A stretch of DNA of 64,000 bases from Octopus vulgaris (taxonomy: Eukaryota), in contig OX597821.1 of assembly GCA_951406725.2 (NCBI GenBank), forward strand, positions 25,296,001-25,360,000, read 5' to 3'. The position numbers were made by a program, and so were the translations under genes. Positions 29,797 through 62,335 of this stretch are shown one piece after another. Below the pieces are notes generated by a model, which worked only from the letters and a program-made list of their open reading frames with translations, did not search any database and was not told the origin of the DNA. Position 1 is the first letter of the stretch. Every line of letters starts with the position of its first letter.

Positions 29797-30010
29797 TAAC
29801 GGGAAGGTTTACGAAAATAAACAAAAGACGAAGGCAGGTGGAGTACAAACAAACAATGTTTAGTATGGCGCTCAGGAATAGAAATAAAACAAGTCTTTTA
29901 CGTTTCGAGCCTACGCTCTTCGACAGAAAGATACACAGAAAAGAAACAAGGAGAGAAACAAGGAGAGAAAAAAATTGCGTGTAGGGGCTAACGATCCAAC
30001 ATGGATCCAA
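29797..30010 (-). mobile_element. Family P2 short element with hammerhead-like motif (29894-29931, core CUGUCGA)
   Basis: UCUUU-CUGUCGA-A-GAGC-GUAG-GCUC-GAAAC-GUA-AAAGA; abuts (TA)n. Confidence 0.7.
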
Positions 30011-30098
30011 CATATATGTATATGCCAGAATGAATTTGTGAAAATAAAAGAATTTATAATATTTGAAAAGGTAAGTTCTTGAAATAGTTTCAACATAC

Positions 30099-30200
30099 CT
30101 TCTGTAGGTAAAGCGTTAAGTAATTCTAGAAGTATATTTTGCAGGTGATTTTCAGTTACACACCGGATCGTATTAGTTATCTCCTGTACGTACAAGTCTT
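30099..30200 (-). other. Candidate exon (best supported)
   Basis: Branch-like CTAAT plus TTCTCGTTCTGTAG acceptor, GAAG|GTATGT donor, 102 nt, phase 1-1, open DLYVQEITNTIRCVTENHLQNILLELLNALPTE. Confidence 0.5.
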
Positions 30201-32807
30201 CTACAGAACGAGAATTAGTTGAATAAACAGTAATCTAATATACATACATACATACATACATACATACATACATACATACATACATACATATAAATATACA
30301 TACATACAATACATACATACATACATACATACAAACATACATACATACATACATACAAACATACATACATACATACATACAAACATGCATGCATACATAC
30401 ATACATACATACATACATACATACATGCATACATACATACATACATACATACATACATACATACATACATACATACATACATACATACATACATACATAC
30501 ATACTTGTATACATACATACACTTGCCCAGAAGCGACACAGAGGGAGCGAACCATGAATGTATATGCACAGGCGTGTGTTTGTGTGTTGTGTGTACATGC
30601 GTATATATGTGTATTTGTGTGTGTGTGTGTGTGTGTGTGTGTGTGTGTGTGTGTGTGAGAGAGAGAGAGAGAGAGGGAGAGAGAGAGGAGGGAGAGAGAG
30701 AGAGAGTATATATATATTTATAATGCTACTACTGGCACAGTGTAAGGCGATGACGGGTGGGGATACTGTAGGATAGAGAAATAGGATATAGCAGAGTGCA
30801 CTGAAGATGGAAATAGGAGAGAGACAGAGACAGGCTGACAGATAGAGAGAGAGAGAGAGAGAGAGAGAGAGAGAGAGGAGGGAGGGAGACAGCAGCCGAC
30901 GTTGACAACAGACTTGTTTCTACGTGACATTGCAGTGATGTAGAGGGCGTTGCAGACACGATAATACAGACAATGGCTAACTTCCGTTTCTAAATCCTTG
31001 CTCATAAATGATAGCTATTATTTAAGGGAAGACGGGTGGAGTAAACAGTTTCATAATAATAATAAAACCCTAGCTGTCGTCAATATTTTCATATGACCCC
31101 TGTTGCTGGTATCAAGGCTGCTGTTTCTGGCCCCTGAACTTGGTAATATTTTATTTTATTCCCCAGTCCTAACTTCATCACTACCACTATTACGACGTTA
31201 TAGTAACCGCATTCTGATGATCGTCACACAGAAGGGTGAGGTCGGAGGGTCAGAGGTGATAGATGGCAGGCGTGGCGAGTGGGGAGAGGGGCATTGGAAA
31301 CACCATAAATACGGATGTACTTAATTGCATATGCATATACACACGCATGTATGTATGTATGTACGTATGTATGTATGTATGTATGTATGTATGTATGTAT
31401 GTATGTATGTATGTATGTATGTATGTATGTATGTATGTATGTTTGTATGTATGTATGTATGTATGTATGTGTGTATGTATGTATGATTGCATGTATGCAT
31501 GTATGTATGTATGCATGTTTGTATGTATGTATGTATGTATGTTTGTATGTATGTATGTATGTATGTATGTATTTATGTATGTATGTTTGTATGTGTGTAT
31601 GTATGTATGTATGTTAAGTATGTATATAGGTATGTATGTATGCATGTATGTATGCATGCATGCATGTATGTATGTATGTATGTTGGTAATATGTAAACTT
31701 AGATAAACCCAAATATGTTTCAACGAAAACTGACTAAAGTCATTTCTAAATAGCACCATGTATATGTGCGCGCGCGTGTATATATATATATATATATATA
31801 TATATATATATATATATATATATATATATATATATATATATATATATGCATTTATACATATATGTAGATACCTACATCTATATATATATATATATATATA
31901 TACGTGCATATATGGGTACAGCACACCAAAAAATAAACGTCGAACACAATGAGAAACGAAAGCATAAAAACAAAAACATGGAAACGAACTTTTTTTCAAA
32001 CAACGAAAAAACAGCTTACAAGACATACAACACGAGGAACATTCACCTTCTGCAGTTGTCTCTGTTTCGTCTACTCCGCGTTTCGAAGGTGAAACGTTGC
32101 ACTGTAAAAGATTATTTGTTTCACACACGATATTGAGATTATATGGATTTTATCACATTTCTAGGTAGTCTGACATCAGGGAGATATCACTGACCCACAA
32201 CACATTTTCTTTTGAAAACACAAGGATTGCATGTAGGGTTCAAACTCGATCACTTTTCGTGAACGCAGTAATGCTCGCGAACGCATCTTTATGAAAAGCA
32301 TAATGCATGGTCAAAGCGTTGACCCATTGGGTATAAATGGCACCCAAAACTTACCAGCCTGTCATTCGTTTCCCGAACGCAGCAAGCATGCCTCGACTGA
32401 CACGAAATCAGTGGGAGATTTTAGGTAAAATTATACTAATGTGTCCATCTGTTTTAATTTAATTAAATTCTATGTCTTTATGCAGCTGAGGATTGTTCTA
32501 CATTTAAACTGATGTAATGATTGCATTGTTGAATTAAATGGAGTTGTTTGAAACAATCGTACTACATTACCTCTGGATATCCTTGTTGCTTATTTTGATT
32601 TCAATCACCTCATTTTGAAATTGTATGGATAATATCGTACTAAATTCTGGTGCCTCAACTTAAGTACCATATTCATCTGAATATATATATATATATATAT
32701 ATATATATATATATATATATATATATGTATGTGTGTATGTATGTATGTATGTATGTATGTATGTATGTATGTATGTATGTATGTATACACACACACACAC
32801 AAACATA

Positions 32808-33671
32808 CAGGGTGCGACGGATTAATTGTCGCCATTTTATATTTCTAATTTCACGCATGCGCATTGTTTATTTTTGATTTTGACGACAACACAGTATTGT
32901 AGGGTCAGTTGGATGCCGTCTGTGAGAAAAACAGCACCATGACGCAATTCACTCAGCCAGAAATTTGGAAACTATTTGGCATTCGTGCCAGAAGATCCAA
33001 TACAAACATATGGTGAACACACAGAACATCCATTGGTTTTTCGTGTCCCCAAAATATGTACCAAGAGTGATAAAAATCAAACATCATGTTGTTTGGAGTG
33101 ATCGCTAATAATGGTGACGTTATGCCTCTATTCATCTTCCCACATGACCTCAGACTCAACACGGAGGCCTACATCAAATGCCTGAAGGAGGAAGGGCTGC
33201 CTTGGGTCAAGAGGGTGGCTGCTGGAAGACCCTATGTCTGACAACAGGACTCTGCAACATGCCACGCAAGCAGGAGAACCCAGTCATGGCTGTCAGATAA
33301 TTTCTGCGTCCACATCACCCCTAACATCTGGCCACTTAACTTGCCAGATTGCAACCCCCTTGATTATTATGTGTAGGGTGCAGCTGATCGAGAGACCATC
33401 AAAACTCCTTGTAACACCAAAGATGAACTGAAGGCAAGGATTATGGCAACATTTATCAACTTAAACAAAGAGATCGTCCAGAAGAGTTGCGGGAGATTCC
33501 GAAGTCGTCTGGAGGTCGTGGTTGAAGCCAATGGCGATTTTATTGAATAAATTTACTCTTTAATATTTCAAGATATCTTAAAGTAATTCTGGTAAATATA
33601 TCTGGTAAAATGAGATGTCGGTGTTATTTTAGTTTTTGCGTAATTTAAATGACTGTCTTCCTCGCATCCTG
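32808..33671 (+). mobile_element. maT / DD37D transposon, internally deleted pseudogene
   Basis: TA-CAGGGTGCGACGG 5' TIR and degenerate 3' TIR; QQD-(37 aa)-NPLDYYV motif with stops; ends EANGDFIE*. Confidence 0.9.
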
Positions 33672-33797
33672 TTGGTATGTAAGTATGTATGTATGTATGT
33701 ATGTATGTATGTATGTATGTATGTATGTATGTATGTATGTATGTATGTATGTATGCATGTATGTATGTATGTAAATATATATATATATATATATATA

Positions 33798-60600: not shown

Positions 60601-60990
60601 TTTCTTTCTTTCTTTCTTCCTCTCTTTTTTTCTTTCTTCCTTTTGTTTCGTCACTTTTTTTGTTTTTCTTATATTTTGCACTGATCTTATTTATACAAAC
60701 ATACAAATACAACATGTGTGTTTTATGTGTGTATGTGTGTGTGCATACAAGCATACACCACACGCACTCACAGAGAGAGAGAGAGAGAGACGTGTTTATA
60801 TACACACACACACACACACACACACACACACATACACACACACACACACATATATGGTGGAGAGCGTACTTGTGTGTGTGTGACTGTTTCTGTATATGTA
60901 CATAAAAGGTATCCCACTGTTACCCCTATGATATTTATTAAATTCATTTAACCGGATCTAATAATGTTGTTGTCGTCTTCGTTGTCATTG

Positions 60991-61260
60991 TTGGCGGTGG
61001 CGGTGGCGGTGGTGGCGGTGGTGGTGGTGGTGGCGGTGGTGGTGGCGGTGGTGGTTGTTGGTGGCGGTGGCGGTGGTGGTGGTGGTGGTGGTGGTGGTGG
61101 TGGTGGTGGTGGCGGTAGTGGTTGGTGGTGGCGGTGGTGGTGGTGGTGGTGGTGGTGGTGGTGGTGGTGGTGGTGGTGGTGGCGGTGGTGGTTGTTGGTG
61201 GCGGTGGCGGTGGTGGTGGTGGTGGTGGTGGTGGCGGTGGTGGTAGTGGTGGTGGTGGTA
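60991..61260. repeat. (GGT)n/(GGC) trinucleotide array
   Basis: Direct reading. Confidence 0.97.
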
Positions 61261-61669
61261 CACGAAGAGAGCGACAAAGACAGGTAGAAACTTACAATGT
61301 AGTAAAAAAAAAAAGGAAACGAAAAAGGAAGAAAGGAAGGAAGGAAGGAAGGAAGAAAGAAAGAAAGAAAGAAAGACAGAAAGACAGAAAGAAAGAAAGA
61401 AAGAAAGAAAGAAAGAAAGAAAGAAAGAAAGAAAGAAATGTGTTTGAGAATAAAATGGTGTTAAATTTAATGGGAAAGTTGCGCAACAATTTTGACGTTG
61501 TTGCTATTAAAAAACTGAGGGGAAAAAAACAGTATAACTGATGTGACCTGCAAAAGTGACCTACAAAATACCTCACGCCTTCTTGTATTTCTAATGAAAC
61601 GGTCAGCATTAAAGATACTGACCCTAAGTAAATCTTATGGAAGTTGGGTGAGATTAAGGTTTTACTTAT

Positions 61670-61900
61670 TCCGGTTAATTAGGCTGCGGCCATGCTAGAG
61701 CACCGCCTTGAAGGGTTTTCGTCGCGCTAATCGACCCTAGTTCTTTTCTTTCTTTTTTTTTCAAGCCTGGTACTTATTCTGTCAGTCTGGTTCATGTTCA
61801 ACTGCTAATTTAGAGGGAGGTAAACACACCGACGCCGGTTTTCAATCAGTGGTGGTGGTGGTGGTGGTGGGTGGTAAACATAGACACAAAGACACACAGA
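61670..61900 (-). mobile_element. Diverged family 1 SINE tail
   Basis: CTGCGGCCATGCTAGAGCACCGCC motif. Confidence 0.7.
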
Positions 61901-62160
61901 CACACACACACACATGTATATATGGCAGGATGTATGCTTGTATGTGTGTGACCGTGTGTGTGTGTGTGTATGACCGTGTGTGTATTTATATATATATGTA
62001 TGTATGCGTGTGTGGTGTTATGTATGTATGTATGTGTATCTCTCTCTCTCTTAATATATATATATACACATATATACATATACGTATATATATATATATA
62101 TATATATATATATATATATATATACATATATATATATACGCACACACACATACATATATA

Positions 62161-62335
62161 GTTGAAATTTACAGAAAAGCAAAAGACAAAGACAGGTGTA
62201 TGAACAACAAGCAGGTGTATTAGTTTGACGCTCGGGAAAGTGAAAAAGGTTTCACGTTTCGAACCCACGCTCTTCAACAGAAACAGGGAGAGATAAAGAA
62301 AAAAAAAGAAAAAAAAACTTGTGGATTCAGCGATG
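62161..62335 (-). mobile_element. Family P2 element with hammerhead-like motif (62249-62284, core CUGUUGA, GUG triplet)
   Basis: GUUU-CUGUUGA-A-GAGC-GUGG-GUUC-GAAAC-GUG-AAAC; abuts TA repeat. Confidence 0.6.

Follow-up and report, generated by a model that had tools for sequence, protein, structure and literature searches.

The type I hammerhead ribozymes of metazoan Penelope-like elements (PLEs) follow the consensus CUGANGAH...GAAAN-palindrome-NUH, and the core variant described among them is U3-A8; the passages shown in that work have the canonical CUGA, with three 'cugu' strings in supplement file 2 (Cervera and De la Pena 2014, PMC4209133). Hammerheads have been called canonical in the PLE clades except Naiad and Chlamys (Craig et al. 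2021, PMC8557442). Here we analyse a 64,000-nucleotide (nt) stretch of the Octopus vulgaris genome (GenBank assembly GCA_951406725.2, contig OX597821.1, positions 25,296,001 to 25,360,000, forward strand; hereafter the window), in which four fragments of a Neptune-type PLE carry a hammerhead motif that is identical to the metazoan PLE motifs at all positions but 6, where the A of the core is replaced by U. Judged from its sequence, this U6 motif is a genuine core variant shared by a whole lineage, while the motif and the kind of element that carries it are themselves known. The initial annotation had regarded A6 as normally invariant, which does not hold strictly: the natural A6C ribozyme of phage Bcep176 likewise combines a changed position 6 with an otherwise intact core, and it cleaves, slowly (PMC3088659, PMC7151607). 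The phage case, however, concerns C rather than U and a single ribozyme, whereas here a dimer-type motif is present in more than 16,000 retroelement copies. A natural A6U hammerhead was not found in the literature searched (titles, abstracts and passages), a scope that does not exclude a prior description.

All four motifs lie where the initial annotation had placed them, the positions it gave being the low end of each (Table 1). They are 36 nt long, fold as type I minimal hammerheads and share the order stem I, CUG-U-N-GA, one extra A, stem II and GAAA-CG-U-H17, with C, A, A and U at position 7, as had been claimed. Stem I is CUUU/AAAG in three copies and GUUU/AAAC in the copy at 62249, and stem II, which is closed by a 4-nt loop, is GAGC/GCUC, two copies having GUUC. 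Relative to CUUU/AAAG, the GUUU/AAAC of the 62249-62284 motif (minus strand) is a double change that preserves pairing; the G17 of the same copy, which the initial annotation had not mentioned, is a private change (140 matches genome-wide). Four matches to the U6 pattern occur in the window, whereas 200 base shuffles gave none. A sister family with members in the window combines CUGACGA or CUGAAGA with an identical extra A and stem II, so the register is that of a substitution of A6 by U and not of an insertion; the alternative register, with an insertion after G5, was ruled out by this family together with the published PLE consensus. In an Rfam scan of the window there was no hammerhead among the 150 of 545 matches listed, all of which were microsatellite-driven miRNA.

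The initial annotation had attributed the recurrent U6 to a change in the master element rather than to decay, and tabulation of position 6 throughout the genome (2.8 Gb, 227 contigs) bears this out. With positions 6 and 7 left free, the motif returned 16,008 exact matches, against none for the reversed control pattern, and A6 was found in only 167 of them (1.0%), the consensus being U. When the whole core was left free, the first 100 of 19,156 matches, inspected by eye, had U in 97, C in two, G in one and A in none; the first 100 of 264 matches to the oldest subfamily, likewise by eye, had U in 85, C in eight, A in six and G in one. The flanks of 30 A6 loci examined, out of the 167, span all subfamilies, indicating that the A6 copies are private changes, and no ancestral A6 subfamily with the same 4-nt loop was found among these 30. 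Four runs whose labels name four organisms gave contigs in which no alternative letter exceeded 2% at position 6, whereas other letters did so at position 7. Metagenome contigs with the same stem II gave a different picture: position 6 was A in 109, U in five, C in four and G in two of the 120 matches listed (119 loci). Four of the five U6 matches lack U16.1 and are chance-like, the fifth is a single copy within an A6 family, and no U6 family was found among the matches listed. Because A6 accompanies this stem II in 109 of these 120 matches, U6 is derived; the comparison across subfamilies and runs indicates that it is older than the oldest subfamily seen and common to related organisms.

By alignment, the four window copies are the 3' ends of a Neptune-type PLE. 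Long copies extend upstream into a reverse transcriptase (RT) followed by a GIY-YIG endonuclease, and a protein search of the genome gave 117 scored matches, dozens of them tied at the same score. The element motif was seen downstream in 27 of the 30 best protein loci, with U6 in all 27. The full unit measures about 4.5 kb and contains a single frame of about 1,000 codons, which begins roughly 760 nt downstream of the hammerhead, with the motif in both flanking repeats. Thus RT and C-terminal GIY-YIG share one frame, and the repeats arise from partial tandems that carry a hammerhead, as in PLEs generally. At one locus (L251) the open frame reaches 1214 codons and includes the sequence YIGQTGR, with RVT_1 at E 1.7e-7 (above the cut-off) and GIY-YIG at E 0.0078 (below the cut-off). 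A C-x4-C-x2-C linker precedes the endonuclease and copies of the element sit in (TA)n; both agree with the CX2-5CxxC linker between RT and endonuclease and the microsatellite targeting described for the Neptune clade (PMC8557442), to which we assign the element by motifs and not by a tree.

The autonomous element is itself a U6 element, because intact protein-coding units have U6 repeats. Of 40 long loci examined, 26 have two motifs, spaced 4.2-4.8 kb apart, and in all 26 of these two-repeat insertions both repeats have U6. The youngest intact, tandem-flanked elements have CUGUUGA in both repeats, one array (L249-L250) comprises three units in tandem, and 20 young copies differ by a median of 0.34% over 1.75 kb, four of 190 pairs being identical. 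In one full unit that was scanned, no canonical hammerhead occurs elsewhere on the sense strand, and the opposite strand has one CUGA-N-GA, which lacks hammerhead context. What had been described as one subfamily is therefore better regarded as an entire lineage, which comprises seven or more subfamilies and includes intact autonomous elements. Two further loci, L498 (G000:C8:18600699-18602202) and L449, are tandem arrays of short units, about 492 and 468 nt long, in which the repeat is followed by the beginning of the leader; they represent a non-coding mini-element that has kept the U6 motif.

To compare the subfamilies, 256 motif copies were sorted by diagnostic flank words (29 remained unassigned and 36 belonged to the sister family). 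The seven U6 consensuses diverge by up to 36% in their flanks, where 48 of 107 ungapped columns are variable, and the motif itself varies at just two sites, position 7 (all four bases) and position 17 (A or U). C3-G8, U4, G5, A9, G12, A13, A14 and A15.1-U16.1 are unchanged in all seven, with only scattered changes in individual copies, stem I has 4-5 bp, stem II forms with a probability of 0.99-1.00, and H17 is A or U. At the flank rate, 12 unchanged core positions would have P ~8e-4, or 2e-6 with the palindrome and stem II included, in a crude test for which most of the copies had been selected by the motif itself. When core or stem II was left free, no other frequent change emerged from the first 100 matches of each search, inspected by eye. 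G17, expected under the H17 rule to block cleavage (PMC3088659), does not occur as a master state: no subfamily with it was found, and its matches in the genome number 140. So far as the alignments go, changes at only the two positions that are free in hammerheads are the pattern of a hammerhead under selection. The initial annotation had also held that the stems are retained. They are indeed conserved beyond the flank rate, but by identity of sequence, loop II included; no compensatory pairs separate the U6 consensuses. Elsewhere in the genome, families with A6 use different stem II pairs, for example GGAC/GUCC.

As in the motifs of PMC4209133, the U6 hammerhead occupies both repeats flanking the RT-GIY-YIG frame and has a short stem I, an extra nucleotide between 9 and 10.1, G10.1-C11.1, a palindrome at 15.2-16.2 and H17; the A6 of the canonical core, which completes the CUGA U-turn (UNR), is absent from all but 167 of the 16,008 exact matches. 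The sister lineage departs from the same turn elsewhere. With its core left free, this lineage gave 12,553 matches, and among the first 100, counted by eye, about 65 had C at position 4, a second fixed core change in the clade; U4C is reported to lower activity while keeping it (PMC3088659). In the UNR consensus the 2'-OH of the uridine bonds to N7 of the purine, and a protonated C can replace U (PMC4105743); A6U breaks the purine rule and should thus be the harsher of the two changes. As read from the consensuses, both lineages have changed the CUGA U-turn (U4-G5-A6) and spared G8 and G12. Because no coding frame of the sister family was found in 41 + 30 loci, sisterhood is drawn from the repeat alignment (41-54% flank divergence).

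We put the chances at about even that the U6 motif is an attenuated, probably protein-assisted ribozyme. By analogy with known hammerheads, U6 would remove the purine of the U4-G5-A6 turn and so sharply lower the rate, leaving the catalytic G8 and G12 intact; as in other PLEs, two motifs could pair through the palindrome ACGU to build stem III, and the protein of the element may help them fold. A rare cut after position 17, perhaps followed by ligation into a circle, might then suffice, and a slow ribozyme would be tolerated because most of the RNA must stay uncut for copying. Natural A6C cleaves below 0.1 per min (PMC3088659), slowly in Mg2+ and well in Mn2+ (PMC7151607), and one PLE hammerhead cleaves only with its own protein, the uncut RNA being the main substrate for insertion (PMC11167929). 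That element, Poseidon of Anolis (Frangieh et al. 2024), resembles the present one in having the hammerhead in a PLE repeat, in inserting into AT-rich DNA, in the copying of uncut RNA and in short tails beyond the repeat end; in contrast to it, Poseidon has a canonical core, belongs to another clade and begins its frame inside stem II. A fuller scenario, which we consider unlikely, is that the element has given up the UNR turn, that this keeps a lone motif shut until the element's protein opens and rescues it, that rare cutting and ligation would make a circular RNA template, and that PLEs repeatedly detune the U-turn as a slow timer while sparing the catalytic guanines.

Several lines of evidence weigh against the attenuated ribozyme. 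In one ribozyme A6C lowered the rate in Mg2+ to 3.55e-6 per min (PMC7151607), and in a type III hammerhead every single change of the CUGA turn gave low activity, which a second change never rescued except in the C3-G8 swap (PMC9901934). Hammerhead catalysis proved dispensable for insertion in vitro (PMC11167929), and yet PLEs have retained the motif almost everywhere. Loop II varies no more than the core does, a pattern more in keeping with sequence-specific binding of a protein than with catalysis alone. In predictions from short fragments, moreover, G5 pairs with C15.2 at a probability of 0.93-1.00 in five of the seven consensuses, and at 0.01-0.38 once A is placed at 6, so that U6 is predicted to draw the core into an inactive hairpin in these five subfamilies; the remaining two gave 0.44 and 0.00.

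The genome was also examined for traces of cutting. Of 166 copies spanning the junction between the repeat and the following unit, 98 were mapped (some of their ends lie at locus edges and seven are poorly anchored); no start falls within 5 nt of the cut, in 92 the copy continues through an upstream motif that is intact and uncut, and the starts of 78 long ones do not pile up anywhere across more than 1.2 kb. Truncations near the cut made up about 50 of 66 matches, which is of similar magnitude to the figure for a control TA located in loop II (about 34 of 39), the two patterns being unequally strict. By eye, 16 of 53 loci of the young subfamilies start at 1.1, where a TA microhomology spans the cut, and in the A17 subfamilies the starts are flat across 17 to 1.4 with no maximum at 1.1; no consistent 5'-truncation peak at the cut results. 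In the 26 two-repeat insertions, the two repeats have private variants in common to either side of the cut, 14 pairs are identical, and the mean number of differences is 1.5 within one insertion versus 10.6 between insertions. Such matched repeats fit copying round a circle, as proposed for PLEs (PMC4209133), which needs cutting and ligation, and the 5' ends run on seamlessly past one unit, as expected from a circular template. Matched repeats and seamless ends can, however, also result from tandem read-through or a homologous switch of template, and the genomic evidence is decisive neither for nor against cleavage. Five loci (L432, L433, L479, L490 and L498) start exactly 96 nt upstream of the cut and are joined there to internal element sequence, possibly because transcription starts at this point and the template then jumps.

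The same constancy of a 35-nt block with loop II among subfamilies would also be expected if the motif did not cut at all and its fold and letters persisted because the RT-endonuclease binds there or because they contribute to the promoter of the repeat. This we hold to be unlikely on balance, though it is the main rival: copying through uncut motifs, the missing end peak and the dispensability of catalysis in vitro all agree with it, Naiad elements have spread without canonical hammerheads (PMC8557442), and two sister lineages have each amplified with an altered U-turn. Against it, repeated changes hit exactly positions 7 and 17, with 17 staying A or U, G8, G12 and the dimer palindrome never changed, and in one mapped PLE the region of protein binding and RT start lies downstream of the hammerhead (PMC11167929). 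The missing cut ends, for their part, say little, because all PLE copies, canonical ones included, must integrate with an uncut motif. The hairpin prediction suggests a further reading, in which U6 was itself selected because it pairs with A15.1 and locks a single motif in a fold that hides the dimer palindrome until the protein or a second copy opens it. The G5-C15.2 pairing that is lost with A6, and the constancy of U6 while N7 changed several times, speak for it; the weak or absent pairing in two subfamilies, the similar gaps that other folds give A6 versions and the shortness of the fragments behind the prediction make it improbable, and one invariant site is unremarkable where 59 of 107 flank columns are invariant too.

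A long pyrimidine tract precedes the motif and runs into it, and in Penelope of Drosophila virilis the end of an intron maps to the hammerhead (PMC4209133), so that an overlapping splice acceptor might constrain the letters, with U6 extending the tract. We regard this as very improbable: no joint ending in the motif was seen in contigs of three presumed RNA runs, a weak test, and the conservation of GAAACGU and H17 would be left unexplained. Random decay of old copies, or an error of assembly, accounts for nothing beyond scattered private changes in single copies and has practically no claim on the fixed letter; it is refuted by the 1.0% of A6, by U6 in the youngest intact elements and by the lack of another position-6 letter above 2%. 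The two alternatives offered by the initial annotation, a natural active variant and a fold kept for another role such as recognition by RT, are both compatible with these data. In either case a substitution that is crippling in other hammerheads has become established in a successful, still intact lineage, which otherwise preserves the core. Should the U6 motif prove to cut, the natural consensus of the core would be broader, and thousands of motifs would escape any search restricted to CUGA; should it prove inactive, its fold would serve retrotransposition in some non-catalytic way.

Table 1. Hammerhead motifs and repeat fragments in the window (U2, U3 and U6_old are subfamily labels).
Feature	Position	Strand	Remark
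Hammerhead motif, CUGUCGA core	29895-29930	-	U6 at 29923; H17 = A
3' repeat (pLTR) fragment, 5'-truncated, subfamily U2	29797-30023	-	98% to U2 consensus; (TA)n run at end
Hammerhead motif, CUGUAGA core	40472-40507	+	U6 at 40479; G-U wobble in stem II
pLTR fragment, 5'-truncated, subfamily U2	40390-40607	+	96% to U2 consensus; (TA)n runs both sides
Hammerhead motif, CUGUAGA core	58295-58330	+	U6 at 58302
pLTR fragment, 5'-truncated, subfamily U3	58266-58419	+	93% to U3 consensus
Hammerhead motif, CUGUUGA core	62249-62284	-	U6 at 62277; private G17; stem I GUUU/AAAC
pLTR fragment, 5'-truncated, old subfamily	62159-62317	-	94% to U6_old consensus over 126 nt
Fifth fragment, U6 lineage, truncated 3' of motif	28727-28809	-	Not in the initial annotation
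Sister-family motif, canonical CUGACGA, 3-nt loop II	42340-42375	+	Register anchor
Sister-family motif, canonical CUGAAGA	33897-33932	-	Register anchor
Sister-family motif, U4C (CCGACGA)	7853-7888	-	Majority form of sister family

Downstream of the cut, at a distance of 20-45 nt, lies a GAGC word (58345-58353 region of the window; loci L306-L417) that repeats the 5' strand of stem II and is kept in both lineages and in many vertebrate-like metagenome families; as a switch partner of stem II it showed no covariation in the few copies of the GGAC family seen. Two sister-family copies stand head to head at 42152-42474, with motifs at 42255-42290 (minus strand) and 42340-42375 (plus strand), an inverted arrangement typical of these elements, and one of the two copies has G5A. 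Further CUGAUGA...GAAA motifs, outside the U6 family, lie at 45916, 38814 and 36856, all on the minus strand. The window additionally contains tandem copies of another abundant interspersed repeat with units of 183-197 nt (23715-24613, 47429-47664 and 55327-55698), and a degenerate, (TTAGGG)n-like interstitial repeat at 57186-57296.

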